Shown piece by piece: positions 32,126-53,559 of a DNA stretch of 64,000 nt (within the stretch, counting starts at the first letter, position 1; each line of letters begins with the position of its first letter). The notes under the pieces are model-generated. The model was not told where the DNA came from. It searched no databases and was given only the letters and a program-made list of their open reading frames with translations. This DNA comes from Bacillota bacterium (GTDB taxonomy: Bacteria > Bacillota > Limnochordia > DTU087 > JAAYGB01), in assembly GCA_012727955.1 (NCBI GenBank), contig JAAYGB010000008.1:70637-134636 (forward strand), in the 5' to 3' direction. The position numbers and the translations under genes were made by a program.

Positions 32126-32247
32126 TTTTCTCTTCACTAAAATAATACCCCCTGTGTCGGCCGCCGGACAGGCTCCCATCCCATCGGTTGCTAACAACAC
32201 AAATGCCATCCCGTGATAGTGAAAGGATGGCATCGATAGTCAACTGT

Positions 32248-32336
32248 CCACCGCTTCCCTTCGCAGGCATTGTCCTAACAGGTTCTAAGGGTCAGGGATG
32301 AAAATCCCACTCTCAGCCAATAAGCTCCCCTAGCGG
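32248..32336 (-). promoter_or_regulatory. TPP (thiamine pyrophosphate) riboswitch
   Basis: The minus strand reads CUAGGGGAGCUUAUUGGCUGAGAGUGGGAUUUUCAUCCCUGACCCUUAGAACCUGUUAGGACAAUGCCUGCGAAGGGAAG. This matches the THI-box consensus GGGGnGC, GGCUGAGA, ACCC, GAACCUG, AAUGCCnGCG and AGGGA. Putative terminator hairpins follow at about 32141-32215. Confidence 0.85.
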
Positions 32337-32444
32337 CCAATATTTATTTTTCGGTGATTAGCGTCATCACGACGGCAATCACATCCACAGACTACTTCGC
32401 TGATGGCAGAGAATATCCTGCTAGATCGGGACCCTCTTCTTAGA

Positions 32445-33309: not shown

Positions 33310-34137
33310 CTAGTAGCTCAACTGCGAAATTCGATGAACCATCACCAATCCCACCACCTCCAGGACTGCCGCCAGCCCAAGGAGCACTCTTCCCAGGGGC
33401 CGGTGAAACAAGGGAGCTACATATTCCGGCATCATTTTAGACATCACCATTAGCAAAATCACTGGAAGCAAAGCCACTACTACCGCGGTTAGCCGACCTT
33501 GGGCCGTCAAGCTGTGTAACTTGTCTGCCAGGCGATGGCGCTCACGGATGGTGGCAGCAACGGTTTCCAAGATTGCCGGCAGATTACCACCGGTCCTGCG
33601 CTGAATAGCTACGGCCATCACCACGGTTTCAAAGTCCTCAGACTCCATCTCCACAGCTAACTGCTCCATTGCCTCAGTCACGTCCACTCCAAGATTCACC
33701 CTGCTCACCATGGTCTCGAAGGCCGTGCCCAAGGGTTGGGGCACTTCTCTAGCCACCATCGCCAAGGCTTGCACCAGGCTAAATCCGGCGGTCATCGCAT
33801 TGCCCACCAGACCTAATGCGTCGGGAAGCTGCTGCTCCATACGCTTTTTCCGTCGGGCTGCCATCCAGGCTTTCAGAAACCTCTGACCAACGAAGCCCCC
33901 AGCTCCCAAAAGCAAAGACAGGAAGGGGCTGGCCATGACCATCCCCATGACAGCCCCCACCAGCCCAAGGGTCACAGCCAAAACCCGGTCTCGACTTAGT
34001 TTAGCTGCCAGGGATAGGCCCCTGCGATCATGCCTAGTCCCGCTCCCTTGCCGATGCCCCTTCCTAGTTCTGGCTTCCATTAGCAATAGGCTCCAAAGCG
34101 CCAATCCACCGAGACTACAAAGCAACAACCGCATCAT
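33310..34137 (-). CDS. tadB: Tad pilus assembly inner-membrane protein TadB (T2SSF domain)
   Basis: T2SSF fold. Start ATGATG overlaps the upstream stop (ATGA coupling). Confidence 0.75.
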   Translation of the reverse strand: MMRLLLCSLGGLALWSLLLMEARTRKGHRQGSGTRHDRRGLSLAAKLSRDRVLAVTLGLVGAVMGMVMASPFLSLLLGAGGFVGQRFLKAWMAARRKKRMEQQLPDALGLVGNAMTAGFSLVQALAMVAREVPQPLGTAFETMVSRVNLGVDVTEAMEQLAVEMESEDFETVVMAVAIQRRTGGNLPAILETVAATIRERHRLADKLHSLTAQGRLTAVVVALLPVILLMVMSKMMPEYVAPLFHRPLGRVLLGLAAVLEVVGLVMVHRISQLSY

Positions 34138-36269
34138 CGGGCAGACACCGAATCCCGTGTCTCGGCAGGCCAAGGCAATCCCATGGCAAGAAAGTCAGCC
34201 GCCGTTTGGCTGCGGGAACTGGTTTGAACAAAGTCTCCTTGTACACCTAACTCCTCATCATAGCCGGTCTGCTGGAACCTAAACAGCTCCCGGAGCATCA
34301 CGTGCCCCTCCTCAATGCCCGTTACTTCAGCAATGGTCAAGACCTTCCGTGAACCATCTTTGAGTCGGCTTTGGAAGATTATCACATCGATGGCAGAGGC
34401 AATCTGTTCGCGAATTGCCCGCAGGGGAAGGTCCACCCCTGCTAACAAAATCATCGTCTCCAAGCGACTGACACAGTCCTGGGCACTGTTGGCATGGATC
34501 GTGGTCAAACTTCCATTGTGGCCGGTATTCATCGCTTGCAGCATGTCGATTACTTCATCGGAACGGCACTCGCCGACTATAATCCGATCCGGTCTCATTC
34601 TGAGGGCGTTCTTCACCAGTTCCCTGATAGTTACTTCACCCTTGCCCTCGACATTGGCAGGCTTGGCCTCAAGCCGACACACATGCTCCTGCATCAGCCT
34701 CAACTCTGCCGCGTCTTCGATGGTCACAATCCTCTCATCGGCGGGAATAAACCCCGACAAAACATTGAGCAGAGTTGTCTTTCCCGAGCCGGTACCTCCG
34801 GCAATAATGATGTTTTTCCGAGCCAACACACAACACTGAATAAACTGGGCCATGGCGTCGTTGAGAGAGCCCATCGCGATCAGATCGTCGACGGTAAAGG
34901 CCTGACGGGCAAACTTGCGAATGGTCAATATGGGGCCATTGAGAGCCAGTGGCGGAATAATGGCATTGACCCTGGAACCATCGGGAAGCCTTGCGTCAAC
35001 CATGGGACTACTTTCATCGATTCTTCGGCCCAGGGGCCCGACAATTCTTTCAATTACTTGCGACACTGCCATATCGCTGGCAAAGGTCAACGGCGTCTTC
35101 TGCAATTTCCCCTTAGTCTCGATATAGATCTGTTGACTTCCATTGACCATAATCTCGGTCACAGAGTCATCGGCTAGCAAGGCCTCTAGGGGTCCCAACC
35201 CCAGTATCTCATCGGTCAACTCAGCGATTAGGTTGTTCCTTGCCTTTTCAGATAGCGCCCCCTCCTGCCCTTGTAATTCCCTCAGGCAAAGACGGCGAAT
35301 CTCATCTCGCAGCTCCTGGCTGGCCGACAACTCCTCCCATGGCACAGACAGATCCCACTGAGAGGCTAACAACTCCTGGACTATCCTCTGGTGCAACTGA
35401 GACTTTAGTGCCGGAACCCCGGCAGCCGACGACAGCGGGGTTCCTTCCTCGTCACCACGCCTTCTCAAGTTTCTTCGTCGTCGTTTGCGTCTCCGGTATT
35501 TTTCCAGGAGGGAGACGGATTTTGCCGGTCGAGGCGAGACCGCAAGTTCTTGAGTTAGATAGTCAAGACTGCGCACAATGGCCGATTTTCCATAGGTTCG
35601 AGAGAAAAGGCATCGCTTCTCCAAAGCAGTGGCCAGCAGGTCTTCATCTTCATTGGCAACCTCAAGGGATTCCACCTCCAACACCCTTTTCACCTGAGCC
35701 GCCACCTCCGACGCGGTGGACTCGGGAACTCGATTGACCACGCAAGTGATGGGACCCACACCTCCGGCCGTCAATTCCTGCAGCTGTAGAGCTGCTGCCC
35801 GCAGTGACAGGGGGCTCGGGGTCGTAACCAGGGCCAATCGATCGGTCAAACTTAGGGCAGACATGATCGGCAAACTCAACTCGTGGCCGAGATCTAGGAC
35901 TATGTAGGGGTAAATTTGACTAAGCAAGTGGATCAGCTTTTCCACATCGGCGCAGGTTGTTTGCTGCCAGACAACCTCGTCTGCCGGGCCTGACAGATGA
36001 TGAATCTTCCCATCGGCAGCGGTTACCATATAATCGGCAATGGCTTGCGTTTGCCATAGACTTTGATCCTGCCAACACTCCGTTACCGAACGACCTACTT
36101 TGATTCCCAGAACTGCCTCCATGGTCTTACCGGGATCCCAGTTCAAGGACAAGATGCAAACTGCTTCATCGCTGTGATCGCACAAGAGTCCCGCGAAGCC
36201 TGCGGCCAGAGTGGTAGTGCCCACTCCACCCTTAGCCCCCAGCCAGCCGATAATCCTTCCCAAGGTCAA
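34134..36269 (-). CDS. Fusion of a TadZ/CpaE-like ParA-MinD-type domain (N-terminal) and the TadA/CpaF secretion ATPase (C-terminal)
   Basis: The N-terminal 270 aa carry a deviant Walker A, GAKGGVGTTTLA, that lacks the second lysine. A polybasic linker RRRKRRRRNLRRR follows. The C-terminal 400 aa are a VirB11/CpaF ATPase with GGTGSGKTTLLN Walker A and Asp/His boxes. Probable start TTG 36269 with GGAGGTG RBS. Confidence 0.8.
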   Translation of the reverse strand: MTLGRIIGWLGAKGGVGTTTLAAGFAGLLCDHSDEAVCILSLNWDPGKTMEAVLGIKVGRSVTECWQDQSLWQTQAIADYMVTAADGKIHHLSGPADEVVWQQTTCADVEKLIHLLSQIYPYIVLDLGHELSLPIMSALSLTDRLALVTTPSPLSLRAAALQLQELTAGGVGPITCVVNRVPESTASEVAAQVKRVLEVESLEVANEDEDLLATALEKRCLFSRTYGKSAIVRSLDYLTQELAVSPRPAKSVSLLEKYRRRKRRRRNLRRRGDEEGTPLSSAAGVPALKSQLHQRIVQELLASQWDLSVPWEELSASQELRDEIRRLCLRELQGQEGALSEKARNNLIAELTDEILGLGPLEALLADDSVTEIMVNGSQQIYIETKGKLQKTPLTFASDMAVSQVIERIVGPLGRRIDESSPMVDARLPDGSRVNAIIPPLALNGPILTIRKFARQAFTVDDLIAMGSLNDAMAQFIQCCVLARKNIIIAGGTGSGKTTLLNVLSGFIPADERIVTIEDAAELRLMQEHVCRLEAKPANVEGKGEVTIRELVKNALRMRPDRIIVGECRSDEVIDMLQAMNTGHNGSLTTIHANSAQDCVSRLETMILLAGVDLPLRAIREQIASAIDVIIFQSRLKDGSRKVLTIAEVTGIEEGHVMLRELFRFQQTGYDEELGVQGDFVQTSSRSQTAADFLAMGLPWPAETRDSVSAR

Positions 36270-36309
36270 CACTGTCACCTCCGGCAATTTGTAGCTCTGC
36301 CTAGCTTTC

Positions 36310-38676
36310 CTACGGACCAGTGATACTGGGAGTCAAGATGATAACCAAATCTGACTGACTCGATTGATACTGCTCAGAGCGAAATAGCTGTCCCAAGATG
36401 GGCAAACTCCCCAACAATGGTACTTTGCTGATCATTTTCCGCTGCTCTTCTCCCAACAATCCACCAATGACAAGGGACTGACCGCTATCCATAAACACCT
36501 GAGTCTGTGCCTTGCGGACTCTGACCGCTGGAATTTGCACTCCATCGATGACTACGGCATTGTTCCAGTCCAGGAGACTAACTTCTGGTTCAAGCTGGAC
36601 ACATATTTTGTCCCCAACCAGTTCTCCAGAAACACTGAGCTTGACTCCATAGTCCCGCCATTCAATGACAGTCTCTTCTTCCGCCTTAACAGGAAGAGGA
36701 ATTTCTCCTCCGGCGAGAAAACTTGCAGTTTCACCGGAGGTAAAGACCAAGGTAGGAGCCGCCAGGGTACGTACTTTACCCTCTGCTGCCAGAGAGGTGA
36801 GGCTGGCCGTCAGTTCTCTGTTACCTAAAGTTAGGGGAACACTAACCGCCAACTCTCCCTCGGCAACCTGTAGCGCCCAAGAAGATGGAGGGGCACTATC
36901 GGAGGTAGCAAACCAGTTGACTCCAAGCTCTCGCAGGCTGGTGTCCTCAATTTCCACCACCCTGACCTGGACCTGAATCTGAGGCTTCACCGCAGACACC
37001 TGAATGGCACTAACCACTTTGGGAACCAACTCTTCTGCTAAGGATAGGATCCTATCCCTTTCCGCCTGGGAGCACTGTCCCGACAATAACACCATGTCAT
37101 CGACATAGGCCGCCTCTACTCCTTGTGGAAGAACGCCATTTAGATACTCCTGAACCCTCTGGTCGATGCCATCGCTGACAACGGATAGGGCATCAAGCCA
37201 CTGGGGATGAAGGTTGGAGATCACCTTGGCGACGTGGTCGTAGGTGGCCCGGGAGACCTGCCCCATGGCCAGGACCTCGCCCCCCTCAAGGTACAAGACC
37301 TCAACGCCAGTTTCTGCCAATAGCTGCTCAAGAGGTAAGCCTGCTTTCAGGGCTTTATTTTGCACCCCAACGGCATTAATGACAGGGTAGTCTAGGACAT
37401 CGACCAGCTGCTGCAATCGCTCCCGCTGTCCCTCTCTGGAAACGGTACCCAGCAAGATGACGGCTGAGTCCAGGGGCTCCACAACTACTTGCTCATACCC
37501 CCAGGTCTGGATAATTCGATTCAGTGTCTTGACAATTGACCTTTGGTCTATCCTTGGCTCCTTGGGCGATTGCACCAACAGACCATTAATCACCTTCGGC
37601 GCAAAGGCAGCGGCGATCTTCTCCGCCACCTCTGCCCGTTCCGGGCAGCTAACCTGACCATACAGTAACAGGCCTTCATCCACTACCTCGAGCTTTACCT
37701 CCGGCATCGCCAGAATCCGGGACAGGCGGGACAAATCGATACCGCCTTCCTGGCGCTGGTGATCTAACTCCCGATTCTTTCCCAACTGCCAGATCCTAGC
37801 CGGGGCAACTTCAACACCGTCTACTACAGGACCATATTGCTCCGCGGCCTTGCGCAGGGCCATCCTTTCCGCTTCGCTATCTACAGCCCCCCGGAGAACT
37901 AGCAAGTTGCCCACCCGCTGAACCCAAGCCCGAGCAAGACCCAGCTCAACGGGAAGCCGCAGTGCCTCTTGCCAGCTTTGATCCTCTACCGCCACCATCA
38001 TGACGGGGGTCAATCCCAGGTGAGTGGCCAGCTCCTTGAGTGCAGGGATATCCTCGGCCACAGCTACCGTGCCGCGGATCAACAAGACATTCTCAGCCCG
38101 CTGGAACTCTAGCTGGGGAAACAAGGAGCTGGTCAGCCGGGCAAAGGCCCCTTCCGCCGCGGCATAACTGGATTCTGCCGTAGTTGCCTTGGTAACGGTT
38201 AAGTCCAGTGTATCGGGCCACAGGGTTTGTAAGGCTTTTTCCAGCATCGAGCGACTTGACTGATCGACTTCCCCGGAGACAATCAAGGTAGTGCCTACCC
38301 ATGTAAACTGACAATCTGAGCCAACTACTTGCATCAGTTCCTCCAGCGACGGGCGGGGCTTGGGTAAGACATTGACCCGGGAACTTATCCGATCATCCCC
38401 CGTCCAGACAACCAATGTCGTTGACCCAAAGCCCTTGCCATTGAGAAGGAACTCATCCCGTCCAGACACCACCACATCGGCTACAGTCTCATCGCCGACA
38501 GCCACGGTGGTCAACCCCGGCACAGGAAAGACCTGGGACTCACCGACGATGAGCTCAATTTCTCCTGGCAGACTACTGGCTTCCGCCCAGCTGCCGGCAA
38601 TCGCTATCAAGAGACTGAGACAACTAATCAGTCTCCACAACGAAGACCTGAGAACCCCGGATGACGGTAATATCAT
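36310..38676 (-). CDS. cpaC: CpaC/RcpA-family secretin carrying seven tandem BON-like domains
   Basis: Signal peptide, then a pilus-formation N-terminal domain (IELIVGESQVFPVPGLTTVAVGDETVADVVVS...GKGFGSTTLVVW). Seven repeats of about 60-75 aa follow, with pattern VxVVxEPLDSAVILLGTVSxEGQRERLQQLVxVLDYPVINAVGV. The C-terminal secretin domain ends ...KVPLLGSLPILGQLFRS. GGGGAGGGAG RBS. Confidence 0.8.
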   Translation of the reverse strand: MILPSSGVLRSSLWRLISCLSLLIAIAGSWAEASSLPGEIELIVGESQVFPVPGLTTVAVGDETVADVVVSGRDEFLLNGKGFGSTTLVVWTGDDRISSRVNVLPKPRPSLEELMQVVGSDCQFTWVGTTLIVSGEVDQSSRSMLEKALQTLWPDTLDLTVTKATTAESSYAAAEGAFARLTSSLFPQLEFQRAENVLLIRGTVAVAEDIPALKELATHLGLTPVMMVAVEDQSWQEALRLPVELGLARAWVQRVGNLLVLRGAVDSEAERMALRKAAEQYGPVVDGVEVAPARIWQLGKNRELDHQRQEGGIDLSRLSRILAMPEVKLEVVDEGLLLYGQVSCPERAEVAEKIAAAFAPKVINGLLVQSPKEPRIDQRSIVKTLNRIIQTWGYEQVVVEPLDSAVILLGTVSREGQRERLQQLVDVLDYPVINAVGVQNKALKAGLPLEQLLAETGVEVLYLEGGEVLAMGQVSRATYDHVAKVISNLHPQWLDALSVVSDGIDQRVQEYLNGVLPQGVEAAYVDDMVLLSGQCSQAERDRILSLAEELVPKVVSAIQVSAVKPQIQVQVRVVEIEDTSLRELGVNWFATSDSAPPSSWALQVAEGELAVSVPLTLGNRELTASLTSLAAEGKVRTLAAPTLVFTSGETASFLAGGEIPLPVKAEEETVIEWRDYGVKLSVSGELVGDKICVQLEPEVSLLDWNNAVVIDGVQIPAVRVRKAQTQVFMDSGQSLVIGGLLGEEQRKMISKVPLLGSLPILGQLFRSEQYQSSQSDLVIILTPSITGP

Positions 38677-39472
38677 GTCTCCCTCCCCTTCTTGCCTCTT
38701 CTTTCTGCGATGGCACTGCTGGGGTCCCGTCTAACTGGAGCAGTGACTCCAGGGTTATCGCCGAAGTCACCCTCCCGGCTAGGGAATCAGCGGCTGATCC
38801 CAAGGAAACTACCCGCAGCTGACCAAAGGCGTCGGCCAGTGCCAAGCGATGGACGGTAACATCATCCACCGACAGAACCAGCTGAGTGGTCTCCGAAAGG
38901 CCAGGATAAGACAAAGGCGCCCCCTCACCGTAGTCACTGCCTAACACATCGACTACCTCGACTTGACTGGCAATCACTACACTCTGCTCCGAAGCATCGA
39001 TCCGGGCGGGGAAGATCCCGATGATATCCACCAACTGTCCCCGCTGGAGATGACGGGCCTGGCGGGTCGGAACAGAAACGACAAAATGCTTACCTCCTGG
39101 CAAACCGGAGGAATCCCCCTCCCGCTGGTCATCCTCATGGGCAGCAAATTCTAGATGGTCTCTGGTGAGCACCGAACCCGCCGACAAGTCGGTGGCGGTA
39201 ATCATCCCTGCTACCACCAATCCATCGATCCAGCCCAGGGGCAATTGCGCCACCGGCCGAGTCTCCAAGAGGATGTGATCCCCGGTGATTGTAGTCCCCG
39301 CGGCCACATCCTCGACCAACACTGCAACCCGAGCTACCACCCCTTCTCCCGTCGACTCCAGCTGAGCCAGGTAAAAGTAGAGCATAACCGCAAAGACCAG
39401 AGCCAACACTCCCGCTACCCAGGGTTTTCGTAGGTAGGACGGAATTCCGCGGATCAGAAGGGAAGAGGCCAT
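38624..39472 (-). CDS. cpaB: Flp pilus assembly protein CpaB/RcpC (SAF domain)
   Basis: N-terminal TM followed by a SAF-like domain (VLVEDVAAGTTITGDHI). Directly upstream of the secretin, which it overlaps by 53 nt. Confidence 0.7.
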   Translation of the reverse strand: MASSLLIRGIPSYLRKPWVAGVLALVFAVMLYFYLAQLESTGEGVVARVAVLVEDVAAGTTITGDHILLETRPVAQLPLGWIDGLVVAGMITATDLSAGSVLTRDHLEFAAHEDDQREGDSSGLPGGKHFVVSVPTRQARHLQRGQLVDIIGIFPARIDASEQSVVIASQVEVVDVLGSDYGEGAPLSYPGLSETTQLVLSVDDVTVHRLALADAFGQLRVVSLGSAADSLAGRVTSAITLESLLQLDGTPAVPSQKEEARRGGRHDITVIRGSQVFVVETD

Positions 39473-40587
39473 GGCAACTCATCTCTGATGTCAATCTCAG
39501 GCCCGGCAAAGGTATAGCCCATAATCACCGTTCCTTCTGGACCGCTGATTGCCCCAAGAAAACACACGTGGCGCTCCCGGAAGTAGACGCCAAAATCGAA
39601 GTCGGTAATTTCCCCCAGCGATTTAAGTACCTCCCGGTCCCCCCCGAATATCTGGTTAAAGCCATGCCCCATGTCCTTCAGCCGTGTTGCCGCATCCTTG
39701 AGGAGTTCAGGATTCAGGAAGGGAAGCCCCACCCAACCCTCTTGAGCCAATCGTTGCCGATACCAATGAGTGACAGCCGCAAAACTATCTCCAGACTTCA
39801 TCATGACTAAGGTTGCTTCGTTCAGAAACCCACTCCGGTTGGGAGGTCCCTCGACGCGGTCTAAAACGATTTTTAGCACGTCAGAGCCCCGTGGATAGAT
39901 AGGCAGCACCAACCTCTGCAGGTACTCTTGCGGTGGAGTCAGATGGGTACCATTTCCGGCAATGACCGTCTTTACCAAGGAGACAATCTTATCATCGTCA
40001 TCGACATCGTCGTAGTCGGGGTAGCTATCCGGCGGGAGTATGGCCCGCAGTTTCGGGTCGTGATCCGGATTGGCATACACCTGCCATTCAATGGTGTATC
40101 CAGGCCCCTTAGCCCGCCGGGAGTCCACCACTATGTAACGCATTACTTCCTTCGCCTCTTCCAGAGACAGCGGCTCGGTCAGATAGGGATCCTTTTTTGC
40201 TTGCTCGTAAATGTATTCCGCATTCTCCTCCACCCAATCATAGGCTTCTACCCGCAGTGCTCCACGGGAAAAGTGGTTTCGCCAATGGCGGGCCGCCCTT
40301 TCTGCCGGTATGGTCATGGGCATCCACAACTCATATCGCCAGACATCATCCTCGAAAAACCAGCCACCCACCGAGAAAAGCATCCCATCGGGGTGAGGTA
40401 AGTCCACGCCTAAGGGTGCTGCCATGAGTGCCTCGAAGGTTAAGCACAAAGCTATCCCCAGCGGGAAAATAAGTCTACCAAGGTACCGAGCAATGGAACA
40501 CCATAAGCGTCGGATTTCATTTCTTCCCGGAGAGCTACCTTTTCTCCCAGTAAATGCTGAAACATGGGCATAACGGGAAAGTCGCAA
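39454..40587 (-). CDS. Hypothetical protein embedded in the tad operon (single hydrophobic segment, acidic DYDDVDDDD stretch)
   Basis: Long ORF with codon usage matching its neighbours and no recognisable motif. Start uncertain: the ORF-track GTG 40626 and my preferred TTG 40587 (GGTGGTG RBS) both overlap the 3' end of the upstream tadE-like gene, by 175 or 136 nt, in another frame. Confidence 0.4.
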   Translation of the reverse strand: MRLSRYAHVSAFTGRKGSSPGRNEIRRLWCSIARYLGRLIFPLGIALCLTFEALMAAPLGVDLPHPDGMLFSVGGWFFEDDVWRYELWMPMTIPAERAARHWRNHFSRGALRVEAYDWVEENAEYIYEQAKKDPYLTEPLSLEEAKEVMRYIVVDSRRAKGPGYTIEWQVYANPDHDPKLRAILPPDSYPDYDDVDDDDKIVSLVKTVIAGNGTHLTPPQEYLQRLVLPIYPRGSDVLKIVLDRVEGPPNRSGFLNEATLVMMKSGDSFAAVTHWYRQRLAQEGWVGLPFLNPELLKDAATRLKDMGHGFNQIFGGDREVLKSLGEITDFDFGVYFRERHVCFLGAISGPEGTVIMGYTFAGPEIDIRDELPWPLPF

Positions 40588-40913
40588 GATATCACCACCC
40601 GATCCATTGAAAGAGTTCGTCTGCACACCACTTCGTAGTGCAGTCCCGGCAACGCAGAATTACTGTTGAGGAAGTTCTCGACCTGGCTAACGGCCTCACC
40701 CGCGGTCCGGCTAGCCACCAACCGAATACCTTGTCTAGCTGCCATCGCCATCAGAATCTTGGTGTGGACAATGGCACCAAACTGAATCATCGCAAAGATG
40801 ACAAACAGCAGCAGCGGCAACACTATGGCCATTTCAACCAAGGCCTGTCCATTCTCGCTCCCTGCCCTCAGACTCAACAAGAGCCCTCTCCCCTTTGTTG
40901 CTGAAATTGTCAT
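40452..40913 (-). CDS. TadE/TadF-like pseudopilin
   Basis: TadE-like N-terminus GQALVEMAIVLPLLLFVIFAMIQFG. Confidence 0.7.
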   Translation of the reverse strand: MTISATKGRGLLLSLRAGSENGQALVEMAIVLPLLLFVIFAMIQFGAIVHTKILMAMAARQGIRLVASRTAGEAVSQVENFLNSNSALPGLHYEVVCRRTLSMDRVVISCDFPVMPMFQHLLGEKVALREEMKSDAYGVPLLGTLVDLFSRWG

Positions 40914-40921
40914 GCCCAGGG

Positions 40922-41668
40922 CTAATCTTTTTCTTTGTCCTTCTCCTTGTTCTCCTGATTGAGCTTCTCGCCGAAATAATTCCTCACCCAGTCCACCCCC
41001 TCCCCAATGCCACCGGCATGGAATTTGACCAGGCTCGCCTTGAAGTCAGGCCAAACCAAGCCGCTACCGTGGACCGCTGACTCCGAGATTGCCACCATCA
41101 CCCCACCCCTATCGGACTTGTCCCTCAACTTACTAAGCAGGGGTAAAGGTTGTCTAACCGCAGCCCCACCCATAATTATGAACCGCTTGCCGTAGGGTAA
41201 GTTATGAGTTCGTCGCTGGGCGTCCACCATGTACTCCTTCCAAAACATCCACCAACGCTTTTTCGGCTCTCTCACCTCAAGATCCGGCATCGCCACCCCT
41301 CCGAGGAAATTCAACGGCACTACCACCGCGGCTCCATTGCGAAGCCCTGTTTCCGTCGCGACGAGAATGGCCAGGACAGGAGCGCTGGCGACTACCATGA
41401 TCTGCGCTTGTTTCGCCATCTCCCTGTGGGCAGGTTCGGTGGCCGAAACACGGGCCCAATTAAGCTGCACTACTAAGTTCAAACAAGAAGCTAGACAGGC
41501 TCCGCCGGCTTGGGCACTGGCGTCCACGGCATTGGCTAGCCGAATCTTAGCGACCATGGTCTCCCCGAGATAGTACACCATCACCGTGGCCAGCATCAGT
41601 ACCGCCACTGCCACCGCGGCCATCACCATCACTTGCCCATCTTTAGCTGTAATGATCTTGCTAATCAT
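40922..41668 (-). CDS. TadG-like pilus assembly protein
   Basis: N-terminal TM plus Tad_N-like segment (VMVMAAVAVAVLMLATVMVYYLGE...LANAVDASAQAGGA). Lys/Glu-rich C-terminal tail. ATGA overlap with the upstream gene. Confidence 0.5.
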   Translation of the reverse strand: MISKIITAKDGQVMVMAAVAVAVLMLATVMVYYLGETMVAKIRLANAVDASAQAGGACLASCLNLVVQLNWARVSATEPAHREMAKQAQIMVVASAPVLAILVATETGLRNGAAVVVPLNFLGGVAMPDLEVREPKKRWWMFWKEYMVDAQRRTHNLPYGKRFIIMGGAAVRQPLPLLSKLRDKSDRGGVMVAISESAVHGSGLVWPDFKASLVKFHAGGIGEGVDWVRNYFGEKLNQENKEKDKEKD

Positions 41669-42189
41669 AGGAAAAACCGTCCCAAATGCCTTAACCCGGG
41701 GATGGACTCGAAGAACCGACCGAAGATGTTGCTAGAATACATTCTGGCGTTTTCCTGGGGCAGCGAATAGGTGACCTGACTCTGTCCCGTAGCATCCTCT
41801 ACCATGGACAGCTGCAGACCAAACCAACTCATTTGGCCTGAGAAAACTCGCTTGACGGTGCTGAGTAACCAGGGCTGCGTACGAGTGACGGTGACCACAA
41901 TGTCCTTGCCCTGCTTCTTTACCGATCCCGTCAAGATCAGACCGCGAACTCCCGAGCCCCAACCGTTGATCACTCTCGCTACAGGAAGTAGATAACTTGA
42001 GGATGGATTGTGTAACACTGCTCGGCGGGCCTCCTCGTAGGCACCGTACTTGACCAGCATCCCATCCAGCAGATGCAAACTCATGGCAAATCCTCCCCAC
42101 AGGACTAACATCACTACCGGCAAGGCAATCACGAACTCCAGCACTCCCACTCCCTCTTCCGAGCGCCAACCGTACACAGCAATTGCCAC
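41665..42189 (-). CDS. TadE-like pseudopilin
   Basis: EEGVGVLEFVIALPVVMLVLWGGF TadE motif. GTG start, or alternative GTG at 42177. Confidence 0.7.
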   Translation of the reverse strand: MAIAVYGWRSEEGVGVLEFVIALPVVMLVLWGGFAMSLHLLDGMLVKYGAYEEARRAVLHNPSSSYLLPVARVINGWGSGVRGLILTGSVKKQGKDIVVTVTRTQPWLLSTVKRVFSGQMSWFGLQLSMVEDATGQSQVTYSLPQENARMYSSNIFGRFFESIPGLRHLGRFFL

Positions 42190-42194
42190 CTCCG

Positions 42195-42803
42195 TTAGCG
42201 TGATACCCCCTGAAGACTAAGGATGATAATCCCACACAAGCTGATCCAGAATCCCAGGGGAACACTAATTCCCAACACCTGGCCTTCCATACCCAAGGCG
42301 CAGGATGCCATCCGTCGCAATAACTGTTTCACCTGGCCCCGTTGCCGGGCAATTATCAGCACATGGATGCCGGAGACTATGGCACCCCATACCGCAATCC
42401 GCAGAGCAACTTCTAGTGGCACCAACACACCCAAGCAAGCCAGGAGCTTGACATCGCCTCCTCCGATGCCTCCCCAGCGATACACCACACAGAAGGGCAA
42501 GGCCAGGACAAAGCCTCGAACCAAGGCCCCAAAGCCTGCCAGCCAGCCACCATCGGCAAGGTTCAGCACCAGCCCCAGTATGAGCACCGGAGCTAGGACC
42601 CCATTGTAGATCCGCCGATACCGCCAGTCAGTATACGCGACGATGACCAAAAACCCCAGGGTCAACAGCCATAGTCCATCGAAACCACCTGCCTCACTCC
42701 CGAACTCTCCAGGGATGGAAAAAGGGGCAAAGCCAATGGCCCTGCCCCTCCAAAAGGGTGCCGAATACCGTTGCTCCATGCCCCAGGTTAACACACCAGC
42801 CAT
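42195..42803 (-). CDS. cpaA: Flp prepilin peptidase CpaA/TadV (A24 aspartic peptidase)
   Basis: DWRYRRIYN and GGGDVKL motifs carry the two catalytic Asp. The N-terminal extension in the ORF is questionable. Confidence 0.8.
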   Translation of the reverse strand: MAGVLTWGMEQRYSAPFWRGRAIGFAPFSIPGEFGSEAGGFDGLWLLTLGFLVIVAYTDWRYRRIYNGVLAPVLILGLVLNLADGGWLAGFGALVRGFVLALPFCVVYRWGGIGGGDVKLLACLGVLVPLEVALRIAVWGAIVSGIHVLIIARQRGQVKQLLRRMASCALGMEGQVLGISVPLGFWISLCGIIILSLQGVSR

Positions 42804-42880
42804 GCCCTTCGAGAGTTATGTGATTTTTTGATTTTTGTTAGATAGTCAACAACCCAACTAAGTATCAACTTACGCCATCG

Positions 42881-43048
42881 TCAACCGCCGATGGTTTCAG
42901 CTAACTGAAGGAACTTCCCCGATATACTGCTTCCCAGAACGCGGACGGCCCCCAGACCCACTACAGCAATCAGTGCCGTCAGCAGTCCGTACTCGGCCAT
43001 GCTTTGTCCGCTTTCGTCCTGCCACAGTTCTCGGAGAAATGCTCGCAT
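42881..43048 (-). CDS. flp: Flp/Fap family pilin (55 aa; below ORF-track cutoff)
   Basis: Manual translation gives MRAFLRELWQDESGQSMAEYGLLTALIAVVGLGAVRVLGSSISGKFLQLAETIGG. The G/QSMAEY Flp processing motif sits at mature positions E5 and Y6. GGGGGT RBS. Confidence 0.75.
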   Translation of the reverse strand: MRAFLRELWQDESGQSMAEYGLLTALIAVVGLGAVRVLGSSISGKFLQLAETIGG

Positions 43049-43108
43049 CATCCTACCCCCTTTCCCCGTGAACTAGCACCCTTATTGGCAAAGTAAATCT
43101 GTATTTAA

Positions 43109-43300
43109 CTAGAACACATTAACGTAGTAAATCAGCTCTAGAATCATGCGGTCACACATCTTCAGTAGTACCCCCTTCATCTTCTCCGACCACAAGACAA
43201 AGGGAATTGCCACCACAGCCAGAAGCAAGGCGTATTCAGCAACACTTTGCCCCCCTTGGTCCAGCAACAGCGAGGCTGCAGAGACCTTTATTCTTGCCAT
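43109..43300 (-). CDS. flp: Flp/Fap family pilin (64 aa)
   Basis: MARIKVSAASLLLDQGGQSVAEYALLLAVVAIPFVLWSEKMKGVLLKMCDRMILELIYYVNVF, with G/QSVAEY motif. This is the C-terminal part of ORF-track 43109..43483, restarted at ATG 43300. Confidence 0.75.
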   Translation of the reverse strand: MARIKVSAASLLLDQGGQSVAEYALLLAVVAIPFVLWSEKMKGVLLKMCDRMILELIYYVNVF

Positions 43301-43334
43301 CGCCTTCGACCTCTCTTCTTCTGGGTTCAACCAC

Positions 43335-43363
43335 ATTATACTCGGTGCGCCGTACATAGTCAA
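43335..43363 (-). promoter_or_regulatory. Consensus sigma-A promoter driving the flp-tad operon
   Basis: Minus strand TTGACT, a 17-nt spacer, then TATAAT, about 35 nt upstream of the first flp start. An A/T-rich UP-like tract lies immediately upstream. Confidence 0.6.
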
Positions 43364-43384
43364 GCGGAATTTTACTTTTTTTCG

Positions 43385-43425
43385 CAAAAAAATGCTCGGC
43401 TGGACTTCTCGTCCTCCGCCGAGCG
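43385..43425 (-). terminator. Terminator-like hairpin after rpe (minus strand)
   Basis: GCTCGGC(17-nt loop)GCCGAGC followed by ATTTTTTTGCG. Confidence 0.4.
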
Positions 43426-43445
43426 TTACTAGCAGCGCTTTCTTG

Positions 43446-44147
43446 TTACTGGTTCCCTTGACAGGCGAAACGCAGATCAGCAATGGTGCGATCCCGATGG
43501 GCGCTGCGGAAAATCGAGGAACCTGCTACCAATATGTTGGCTCCCGCTTCAACCACCAATGGAGCTGACACCAGGTCAATTCCCCCATCGACCTGAATGT
43601 CCACCTGCAGCTTCCGCTCCATAATTATTCTCCGCAATGCCCTAATCTTGGAAACCATCCCAGGGATAAACTTCTGGCCCCCAAAGCCAGGATTGACGGT
43701 CATGATCAGCACCTGATCAAGGTCCTCCAGGATATACTCCAGGACGTCCAAGGGTGTTGCCGGGTTTAGGGCAACGCCAACCCTAACGCCCAGAGCCTTG
43801 ACCAATCCCACAGAGCGGTGCAGATGAATGCAGGCTTCCGCTGACAGAGTCAAGGCAGTGGCACCGGCCTTAACAAAATCCTCAACATAACGATCGGGAT
43901 CGGCAATCATCAGGTGTACATCCAGGGGCTGATCCGTAAACTTGCCAATGGCCTCTACAACTCCTGGACCGAAGGTGATGTTGGGAACAAAGTGTCCATC
44001 CATCACATCAATATGTAACATGTCCGCTGCAGACACCGATGCGATCTCTTCTCCGAGCCGCATAAAATCCGCAGCCAGCAAAGAGGGGGCGATTTTGACA
44101 TCGGTCCCCCTCGAAGCATTATCTGAGTTAGTATCTGTTTTCTTCAT
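43446..44147 (-). CDS. rpe: Ribulose-phosphate 3-epimerase
   Basis: IAPSLLAADF...HIDVMDGHFVPNITFG...DGG motifs. Confidence 0.9.
   Translation of the reverse strand: MKKTDTNSDNASRGTDVKIAPSLLAADFMRLGEEIASVSAADMLHIDVMDGHFVPNITFGPGVVEAIGKFTDQPLDVHLMIADPDRYVEDFVKAGATALTLSAEACIHLHRSVGLVKALGVRVGVALNPATPLDVLEYILEDLDQVLIMTVNPGFGGQKFIPGMVSKIRALRRIIMERKLQVDIQVDGGIDLVSAPLVVEAGANILVAGSSIFRSAHRDRTIADLRFACQGNQ

Positions 44148-53482: not shown

Positions 53483-53559
<77 letters not shown>

Follow-up and report, generated by a model that had tools for sequence, protein, structure and literature searches.

A tad operon in the window, the 64,000-nucleotide stretch of Bacillota DNA analyzed here, encodes a protein, X, that is predicted to have a tail in the cytoplasm, a single hydrophobic segment and, outside the cytoplasm, two domains. 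Gene X is a real gene, and its position is strictly tied to one type of Tad operon. Comparison of three divergent loci suggests that its true start, together with the membrane segment, most likely lies 136 nt inside the upstream tadE gene, at TTG 40587. This overlap looks real in the comparison, and because a start within tadE precedes the annotated one, public annotation probably cuts the protein short at its N-terminus. X itself is probably extracytoplasmic.

Gene X within a conserved Tad operon

Gene X and its immediate neighbors occupy the following positions; L001 and L002 are the two loci that carry its homologues.

38624..39472, minus strand: downstream CpaB/RcpC gene, with SAF and RcpC domains and an N-terminal transmembrane segment
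39454..39472, minus strand: 19-nt overlap of the X 3′ end with the start of the CpaB/RcpC gene (ATG 39472), also 19 nt in L001 and L002
39454..40425, minus strand: gene X, public model, starting at ATG 40425 (323 aa, NLV91264.1 ‘hypothetical protein GX030_02565’)
39454..40587, minus strand: gene X, preferred model, from start TTG 40587 to stop TGA 39454-39456 (377 aa), with the predicted layout of tail, hydrophobic segment and two domains given above
40452..40913, minus strand: upstream TadE-like pseudopilin gene (153 aa; Pfam TadE, E 9e-13), whose last 45 codons overlap X

A first-pass annotation had described an open reading frame of about 380 aa inside the tad operon, at 39454-40626 on the minus strand, and it is present as described (390 codons counted from GTG). 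We regard it as more than a chance reading frame because it wins the codon-usage test and because it has two distant homologues, P0002 (E 4e-33) and P0003 (E 4e-18), at 26-30% identity. The X frame scores best from ~40420-40450 to the stop, and the clear coding signal and the homology are confined to the part covered by the public model (39454..40425), which includes neither an overlap with tadE nor a membrane segment. Public gene calls place downstream starts in all three family members (323, 314 and 330 aa).

When 1.84 billion cluster representatives were searched exhaustively, the family proved to consist of these three members only, and all three come from uncultured genomes. Neither X nor its halves nor its homologues matched anything in Pfam (even at E ≤ 10), NCBIfam or PHROG, and single-sequence and profile searches of PDB sequences with X were likewise empty. 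The initial impression of a protein with no recognized motif is thus upheld, and these searches assign X to no well-known family unrelated to pili. A precomputed weak hit of fragments to Pfam PF27226 (‘AF_1845’) was not reproduced on scanning. Word-indexed protein searches with X and with the three-sequence profile recovered known members only, and the same kind of search with TadE recovered a single copy, 99% identical. A genome scan with the X profile found the L001 contig again and nothing else, and a metagenome scan with this profile gave no match. With a TadE profile, the metagenome scan yielded 45 loci, of which 0/45 encode an X relative; the full-length TadE matches inspected were high-GC and Actinobacteria-like in look. 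The near-identical assemblies L049-L051 are identical in the overlap and so uninformative about it. Low-coverage (~2x) assembly errors probably account for the split genes of L049 and L050, and L050 shows a 1-nt difference in an A run.

The operon has the same order in the window, L001 and L002: Flp, TadV, TadE, TadG-like, TadE, X, CpaB/RcpC, secretin, TadZ-TadA, TadB and TadC. Pfam matches confirm the identities of the genes next to X. Both homologues, which were found by sequence alone, lie between the second TadE gene and the CpaB/RcpC gene in operons that are otherwise collinear, and the L001 and L002 orthologues of the upstream TadE-like gene are 46-54% identical. In all three loci, gene X is co-located and co-oriented with the core tad genes and overlaps both neighbors. 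The suggestion that X is a lineage-specific Tad component gains from this comparison of related tad loci: the gene is lineage-restricted and tied to tad, and both homologues occupy the same slot. A TadG-like gene (PF13400) is separately present at 40922-41668, and of the genes in the loci with either a scan or precomputed Pfam hits, none is a homologue of TadD, RcpB or CpaD.

Evidence for a probable start inside tadE

Three features bear on the start of X.

40417..40473, minus strand: hydrophobic segment LIFPLGIALCLTFEALMAA, residues 39-57 counted from the TTG, a predicted signal-anchor or signal-peptide h-region with possible cleavage between LMA and AP
40452..40587, minus strand: proposed two-frame region of 136 nt, encoding the TadE C-terminus in one frame and, in the -1 frame, the X tail and first half of the hydrophobic segment
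40591..40599, minus strand: Shine-Dalgarno-like GGTGGTGAT, three bases upstream of TTG 40587 and made of tadE Val-Val-Ile codons

Two candidate starts, GTG 40626 and TTG 40587, lie inside tadE in its -1 frame and produce overlaps of 175 and 136 nt, respectively, up to the tadE stop at 40452. It had been claimed that every plausible start falls inside tadE, which is incorrect: ATG 40425, the publicly annotated start, sits downstream of the tadE stop and has GAGG 5 nt ahead of it. Conservation, by contrast with gene calling, points to the TTG. In 3/3 loci, an in-frame TTG stands exactly 136 nt before the tadE stop with GGTGGTG(A/G)T ahead of it, and in L001 and L002 the X frame opens just 4-5 codons upstream of this TTG. 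The anti-SD duplex at the conserved TTG amounts to -13.2 kcal/mol here, -13.4 in L001 and -14.8 in L002, as against -5.9, -2.9, -1.7 and +0.2 kcal/mol at annotated or proximal starts; a value of -13 kcal/mol is reached by ~1% of start-like triplets and, among called starts, by 4/18 and 3/19. The SD/TTG block is nucleotide-invariant across the three loci, synonymous sites included. Among tadE codons for invariant residues, the third base is identical in 4/4 within this block, compared with 8/34 upstream and 1/10 downstream. Conservation of the GTG-GTG and TCT-TGC codons might have another cause.

The -1 frame is also free of stops over the last 45 tadE codons in each of the three loci, with P = 0.092, 0.015 and 0.085 by synonymous resampling of tadE; the empirical base rate of such open windows is 10-15%. 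The joint probability of three open frames is ~1e-4 by resampling and ~2e-3 by empirical base rates, statistics that are modest because there are only three independent loci. Two marks of dual coding, an alternative frame open beyond chance in the orthologues over 45 codons and a start codon with its ribosome-binding site conserved at the same position, are therefore present in 3/3 loci, and the out-of-frame overlap of 136-175 nt noticed at the outset looks conserved rather than an artefact of ORF extension. Within the overlap, the codon-usage model scores the tadE frame alone as coding, which is expected if TadE dominates there and gives no positive support for the X frame. The amino-acid sequence of the tail is not itself conserved among the three loci. 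Close to the tadE stop, at a distance of no more than 2 nt, each locus has a further in-frame start codon, TTG or GTG (40449 here, 9211 in L001 and 10028 in L002), a placement that would suit termination-reinitiation.

Predicted topology and fold

The segment LIFPLGIALCLTFEALMAA is the only 19-aa window in X with a mean Kyte-Doolittle hydropathy of at least 1.6 (value 2.05), in agreement with the single hydrophobic segment originally reported, and its equivalents, 19-20 aa in length across the loci, have means of 1.77 in L001 and 2.26 in L002. Read from the TTG, 3/3 proteins begin with a tail of 36-43 aa containing 7-9 K/R and 0-1 D/E, followed by one hydrophobic window and then acidic sequence, so that the three loci agree in predicted topology. 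The positive charge of the tail lies above the synonymous-resampling expectation with P = 0.03 (window), 0.34 and 0.02, and the last 9 residues of the overlap contribute no independent signal, as their hydrophobicity is dictated by TadE residues. The X N-termini lack the lipobox [LVI][ASTVI][GAS]C of a TadD-type pilotin, the cysteines being preceded by IAL, LVF and LYY, with L, F or Y at -1. They also lack the class III signal of prepilin-like proteins (TadE/TadF/Flp), which consists of a Gly cleavage site, a hydrophobic helix and Glu at +5; no G/xxxxE motif occurs in the three N-termini, and there was no PF07811 or PF13400 match.

Beyond the membrane segment, the protein divides as follows.

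39496..39990, minus strand: C-terminal alpha+beta domain, with the most strongly conserved motifs of X
39991..40017, minus strand: acidic patch DYDDVDDDD in the inter-domain linker, of low pLDDT (model residues 131-142)
40066..40386, minus strand: N-terminal alpha+beta domain (beta hairpin, helix, strand, helices, beta hairpin), with AF2 blocks of pLDDT 70-90

The AF2 model of X (pLDDT 69, pTM 0.63) is mixed alpha+beta with at least 12 strands; a full-length model from the TTG (pLDDT 54) has an N-terminus with pLDDT < 50 and no confident helix. In the alignment, the N-terminal domain has conserved Trp residues and a DW motif, and the C-terminal domain carries the motifs PPxxxLxRLVxPIYPR at 39889-39936 and WYRxRLxxEGW at 39733-39765. 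The acidic DYDDVDDDD patch singled out earlier is present, but it falls in an indel region, is not conserved and is absent from both homologues. A comparison of the two X domains by hhalign found no similarity that would indicate an internal duplication. The modeled domains may distantly resemble the Mog1/PsbP/DcrB fold, in which helices sandwich an antiparallel beta-sheet; this is a weak assignment, and superposition on PA1624 and DcrB, two members of the group, covers just ~105-115 residues at 1-11% identity. Foldseek with the X model returned nothing at E < 0.01, whole X, its halves and its homologues had no Pfam match to the group (DcrB PF08786, DUF1795, DUF4892) at E ≤ 10, and a PDB profile search with X was empty with respect to it. 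The Mog1p/PsbP-like group also takes in cytoplasmic proteins, namely Eag chaperones and Mog1.

A model for X in the Tad machine

We give roughly even weight, for and against, to the proposal that X is an exported or inner-membrane-anchored accessory protein of the Tad (type IVc) machine in a few Limnochordia-type secretin-bearing diderm Firmicutes, with its start at TTG 40587. Translation from this TTG, in the -1 frame of tadE, would be driven by the strong Shine-Dalgarno sequence formed by the tadE Val-Val codons. Within the 136-nt overlap would lie the codons for ~38 aa of cytoplasmic tail, rich in Arg and Lys, and for the initial half of the hydrophobic segment, which could then carry the remaining ~320 aa across the inner membrane. 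X might stay anchored there with its N-terminus in the cytoplasm, or signal peptidase might free it after the xLA motif. In the periplasm, X may have a structural or assembly role alongside CpaB/RcpC, the secretin or minor pilins, with CpaB/RcpC a likely partner. Because the X reading frame overlaps both neighbors, X could be produced in fixed proportion to TadE and CpaB. The start in use, the export step and the part that X plays in the machine are inferred, the last of these from gene order.

A bolder version of this proposal is possible, although we lean against it. X would be a new inner-membrane-anchored periplasmic Tad subunit of diderm Firmicutes that replaces the CpaI/TadD-type connectors of Proteobacteria, and a conserved 136-nt dual-coding region, one that present-day gene finders consistently overlook, would tie both its production and its export signal to the minor pilin TadE.

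Alternative explanations

A serious contender, which we nonetheless consider rather unlikely, is that public annotation is right. Translation would then begin at ATG 40425 or, if ribosomes terminate and reinitiate just past the tadE stop, at TTG 40449, and X would be a soluble cytoplasmic protein without a complete membrane segment, possibly a chaperone that covers hydrophobic pilin or pseudopilin helices, akin to DUF1795/Eag proteins with T6SS effectors; the open frame upstream would be there by chance. Such a start is what every gene caller picked, and it is consistent with the GAGG before ATG 40425, with the in-frame start close to the tadE stop in 3/3 loci and with the tadE-only codon usage of the overlap. 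However, these proximal starts pair weakly or not at all with the anti-SD sequence (-5.9 to +0.2 kcal/mol) and vary in position and kind between loci. A downstream start would also leave unexplained the open -1 frame in 3/3 loci, the invariant synonymous sites of the TTG/SD block and the excess positive charge of the tail, and the conserved half of a hydrophobic segment at the N-terminus would serve no purpose. For the scenario that the first-pass annotation had set against its own reading, a start at TTG 40449 with neither overlap nor membrane segment, the evidence runs the opposite way, and the comparison favors TTG 40587. A TadE-X fusion, made by programmed -1 ribosomal frameshifting in the tail of tadE and acting as a large minor pilin with a globular head, would fit the placement of X in the -1 frame and the opening of this frame through the overlap in 3/3 loci, but seems scarcely credible. 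The window and L001 are devoid of X_XXY_YYZ slippery heptamers and none is conserved across loci, the conserved Shine-Dalgarno sequence and start codon account for the open frame more simply, and it is hard to see why a pilin fusion should have a hydrophobic segment at its center.

Other alternatives concern function rather than the start. X could be the functional counterpart of a TadD/RcpB/CpaD-like protein, either a secretin pilotin or a factor for outer-membrane assembly, and help the large BON-rich secretin into the outer membrane of a diderm Firmicute, as might be suspected from its probable extracytoplasmic location, from the lack of a TadD, RcpB or CpaD homologue among the locus genes scanned or with precomputed Pfam hits, and from the differences in Tad accessory proteins between lineages (PMC13170226). 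We find this improbable. X has no lipobox (L, F or Y precedes the Cys), no match at E ≤ 10 to TPR or OmpA-like families in Pfam and no homology to RcpB or the OmpA-like CpaD; its AF2-predicted fold is alpha+beta instead of the all-helical TPR fold; its gene sits among pseudopilins and cpaB, neither after nor adjoining the secretin gene; and an uncleaved inner-membrane anchor would fall short of the outer membrane. The same results tell against the RcpB/TadD-like pilotins with which X had been compared on first inspection. That X is a passenger gene without pilus function, fixed in the operon by chance, would sit well with its lack of homology to any known pilus component, but is decidedly improbable given that X occupies the same position in three loci, though the proteins are just 26-30% identical, and that its frame overlaps both neighbors.

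Relationship to known systems and implications

Tad pili have a conserved core, but their periplasmic and outer-membrane accessory parts are lineage-variable and still being assigned; lineage-specific accessory proteins are required for linking or assembling the secretin and the alignment ring of CpaB/RcpC (PMC13170226). Of these proteins, CpaI is a beta-sandwich, CpaD an OmpA-like lipoprotein and CpaO, the TadD orthologue, a horseshoe-shaped helical protein (PMC13170226). X, which adjoins cpaB, would fill a niche comparable to that of CpaI and CpaD (Caulobacter), TadD and RcpB (Aggregatibacter/Pseudomonas) and TadG, all of which are encoded inside tad loci, extracytoplasmic and lineage-variable. 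Nevertheless, X has no homology to them, and the TadG-like PF13400 gene exists apart from X in the operon.

Among proteins of the Mog1p/PsbP-like fold, PA1624 (DUF4892) and DcrB (PDB 6td9, 6e8a) are periplasmic or inner-membrane-anchored, and the fold group of PA1624 is often linked with membrane-anchored complexes (PMC7716261). An extracytoplasmic, membrane-associated location, documented for PA1624/DcrB (PMC7716261), is predicted for X, and PA1624, like X, is a two-domain protein of unknown function. There the likeness ends. X shows no sequence or profile similarity and no significant Foldseek match to these proteins, neither of which is a pilus component; DcrB is a lipoprotein, whereas X lacks a lipobox; and the two modules of X are both modeled as alpha+beta, in contrast to a Mog1-like plus an OmpA-like domain. 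The Eag/DUF1795 chaperones (SciW, EagT6 and PA0094) fall into the same broad fold group in structure searches and bind the hydrophobic transmembrane helices that secreted proteins carry, which makes them an appealing parallel for a pseudopilin-adjacent gene. However, they are cytoplasmic, single-domain (~150 aa) proteins of type VI secretion without sequence similarity to X, which, unlike them, most likely has an export signal.

As adhesion machines, Tad pili are widespread; to our knowledge, almost nothing is known about how Tad-type machines span the envelope of outer-membrane Firmicutes. Gene X is a concrete candidate for a lineage-specific Tad part, with a practical impact limited by the tiny size of its family of three divergent members. 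If the TTG start is correct, then the public 323-aa model is N-terminally truncated and the protein has been wrongly placed in the cytoplasm. The tadE/X pair would also be a clean case of a conserved, long out-of-frame overlap, in which a start codon, a charged tail and half of a membrane segment lie inside another gene. Gene overlaps in operons are usually 1-4 nt, far below the 136 nt proposed here. A second long overlap occurs in the same operon: in all three loci, the secretin gene begins ~50 nt within cpaB behind a strong Shine-Dalgarno sequence, and the overlap encodes the secretin signal peptide. As proposed for tadE/X, the downstream Shine-Dalgarno sequence, start codon and export signal thus lie within the 3′ end of the upstream gene, but the tadE/X overlap is longer and was missed by all gene callers.

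X, a gene within the tad operon

The minus strand of the window carries a complete Tad (type IVc pilus) operon, in which the gene that we call X lies between the second TadE-like gene and cpaB.

Genes of the tad operon in the window (assigned by Pfam unless another basis is given)
43109-43483 (-): ORF containing a Flp-like pilin (QSVAEY motif, with Pfam Flp matches in the homologous loci L001 and L002 and in the near-identical assembly L051)
42195-42803 (-): A24 prepilin peptidase
41665-42189 (-): TadE-like
40922-41668 (-): PF13400 TadG-like
40452-40913 (-): second TadE-like (E 9e-13)
39454-40626 (-): X (open reading frame)
38624-39472 (-): CpaB/RcpC
36310-38676 (-): secretin, 788 aa, with BON repeats
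34134-36287 (-): fused TadZ-TadA ATPase
33310-34173 (-): probable TadB (by position; the L001 and L002 counterparts match Pfam T2SSF)

X is a genuine gene. Between about 40420 and the stop, its frame scores best under a codon model trained on long ORFs of the window. As the first-pass annotation had proposed, we looked for homologues and for conservation of the ORF in related tad loci. When 1.84 billion cluster representatives were searched exhaustively with HMMER, the only hits besides X itself were two relatives, P0002 (314 aa, 30% identity, E 4e-33) and P0003 (330 aa, 26% identity, E 4e-18), both encoded inside tad operons. Their contigs (L001 and L002, one of them a Limnochordia MAG) keep the gene order of the window, in which PASTA kinase, RsgA and Rpe are followed by the whole tad operon and then by ThiT and thiamine pyrophosphokinase, and X again has the second TadE gene on one side and cpaB on the other, overlapping the latter by 19 nt in all three loci. 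Word-indexed protein, genome and metagenome searches added no family members, and X matched no Pfam, NCBIfam, PHROG or PDB sequence even at E<=10. X is a conserved, tad-embedded orphan gene whose family is new and very small, within a known kind of system.

The ORF, coordinates, hydrophobic segment, acidic patch and overlap arithmetic were all as first described, and synteny backs the earlier reading of X as a lineage-specific Tad component. The accompanying comparison with RcpB/TadD-like pilotins fared worse: membership of the TadD, RcpB or CpaD families is unsupported because X has no lipobox, no TPR or OmpA-like match and a different fold. Motifs conserved in the three-sequence alignment (PPxxxLxRLVxPIYPR and WYRxRLxxEGW) fall in the C-terminal half, and the acidic patch DYDDVDDDD, located where the alignment has insertions or deletions, is not conserved.

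In two assemblies of the same population, at about 2x coverage, X is split into two ORFs (L049 3001-3971 and L050 2720-3645). A single-base difference in an A run separates L050 from the window; the splits therefore probably reflect errors of assembly and not pseudogenes. Precomputed annotations give the C-terminal fragments from these assemblies (P0008 and P0009) a weak or faint match to PF27226 'AF_1845', which our local Pfam copy did not reproduce and on which we found no literature.

A candidate start within tadE

The public model of X, NLV91264.1 from a 'Firmicutes bacterium' MAG, has 323 aa and starts at ATG 40425, and its homologues are called at comparable downstream codons; models of this kind lack the overlap and reduce the hydrophobic segment to a stub. 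In all three loci the X frame is open into the tadE 3′ end and, precisely 136 nt upstream of the tadE stop, contains a TTG in frame (window 40587, L001 9076, L002 9890). The frame opens just 4-5 codons upstream of this TTG in L001 and L002, so GTG 40626 is not conserved. Synonymous resampling with each genome's own codon usage gave P = 0.092, 0.015 and 0.085 for a tadE -1 frame free of stops over 45 codons, although this model slightly over-predicts stops; empirically, 10-15% of 45-codon windows are open in that frame. Resampling and empirical rates together put the joint probability for three loci at roughly 1e-4 to 2e-3.

The sequence GGTGGTG(A/G)T precedes the conserved TTG at ideal spacing. 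Pairing with the anti-Shine-Dalgarno tail there is -13.2, -13.4 and -14.8 kcal/mol, as against -5.9 (ATG 40425) and -5.5 (TTG 40449) at downstream candidates in the window, -2.9 and -1.7 in L001 and +0.2 in L002; among the start-like triplets of these sequences only about 1% reach -13, but called starts do so in 4 of 18 and 3 of 19 cases. Synonymous sites are saturated among the three tadE genes: of the codons for invariant residues, 8 of 34 upstream share their third base, as does 1 of 10 within the overlap, whereas the Shine-Dalgarno/start block (GTG GTG. TCT TGC) uses the same codon at all four invariant residues. The internal Shine-Dalgarno sequence, TTG and open frame are conserved.

Against an internal start, codon usage in the overlap is that of the tadE frame only and the X tail sequence is not conserved. 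Moreover, every locus has a TTG or GTG codon in the X frame no more than 2 nt from the tadE stop, so termination-reinitiation is possible. A TadE-X fusion by -1 frameshifting is unlikely, no slippery heptamer being conserved across the loci. On balance, this three-locus comparison leads us to favor TTG 40587, with some reserve, as the start of X. The overlap with tadE, flagged earlier as unusual, is probably real and conserved, and the public 323-aa model would thus be truncated.

The same operon offers a precedent for an export signal encoded in a gene overlap. The secretin gene begins about 50 nt inside the cpaB/rcpC 3′ end (window 38624-38676 (-), L001 10951-11000, L002 11825-11877) behind a strong Shine-Dalgarno sequence (-11.7 to -12.4 kcal/mol), and in all three loci this overlap encodes the secretin signal peptide.

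The TadE-like C-terminus (window 40455-40520, -) runs about 20 residues past its 'LREEMK' motif; in two actinobacterial-type TadE ORFs from metagenome loci, about 8 residues follow the corresponding MRKE motif. The longer tail is poorly conserved and, in the other frame, encodes the X hydrophobic segment, a hint that the X frame shapes it.

N-terminus and predicted fold

Begun at the TTG, all three proteins have a 36-43-aa tail with 7-9 Lys/Arg and 0-1 acidic residues, then one 19-aa window of mean hydropathy 1.8-2.3 and then acidic sequence. The N-terminus is consistently signal-anchor-like, and this textbook positive-inside pattern predicts a cytoplasmic N-terminus with the C-terminus outside. 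Tail charge exceeds the expectation from stop-free synonymous resampling with P = 0.03, 0.34 and 0.02. A small-x-Ala motif, read from the sequence, ends the hydrophobic segment (LMA-AP, SLA-AP, VLA-SK), and cleavage by signal peptidase after it is possible.

An AlphaFold2 model from the three-sequence alignment has medium confidence (pLDDT 69, pTM 0.63) and contains two alpha+beta domains whose topologies are similar, with the acidic patch in the disordered linker between them; the two halves have no detectable sequence relationship. A second model including the N-terminal tail was poor and uninformative. Foldseek gave no significant match. A fold-likeness list, its figures unlabelled, named periplasmic PA1624 (10.0), the inner-membrane lipoprotein DcrB (8.9), the Eag chaperones SciW (8.7) and PA0094 (7.4) and secreted MTC28 (6.1). 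These proteins belong to the Mog1p/PsbP-like fold group, in which association with membrane-anchored complexes is frequent among the bacterial members (PMC7716261). The modeled likeness is at the level of fold only and assigns no function.

Proposed role and genomic setting

We propose that ribosomes initiate X at TTG 40587 within tadE, that the Arg-rich tail and hydrophobic segment would target the product to Sec, and that in the periplasm its two alpha+beta domains could cooperate with CpaB/RcpC, the secretin or minor pilins. Such a role would be analogous to that of the lineage-specific connectors and assembly factors CpaI, CpaD and TadD of proteobacterial Tad systems (PMC13170226). X is of moderate interest, mainly for pilus evolution, the envelope-spanning machines of diderm Firmicutes and overlapping genes.

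Other features of the region deserve mention. One 717-aa ORF, 34134-36287 (-), fuses TadZ/CpaE-like (ParA/MinD-type) and TadA/CpaF ATPase domains, and ORFs of comparable length (710 and 721 aa) occupy its position in L001 and L002. At 788 aa in the window, and 807 and 860 aa at the two homologous loci, the secretin is of unusual length; in the window protein (36310-38676, -), BON-type repeats separate the N-terminal pilus domain from the secretin core. Downstream of the operon, a TPP riboswitch (32239-32341, -) precedes, by synteny with L001 and L002, the ThiT and thiamine pyrophosphokinase genes, so the tad locus (33310-43483) seems to interrupt a Firmicutes-type PASTA kinase-rsgA-rpe cluster between rpe and its thiamine genes. 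A tRNA gene at 53483-53556 (+) lies on the strand opposite to most window genes.
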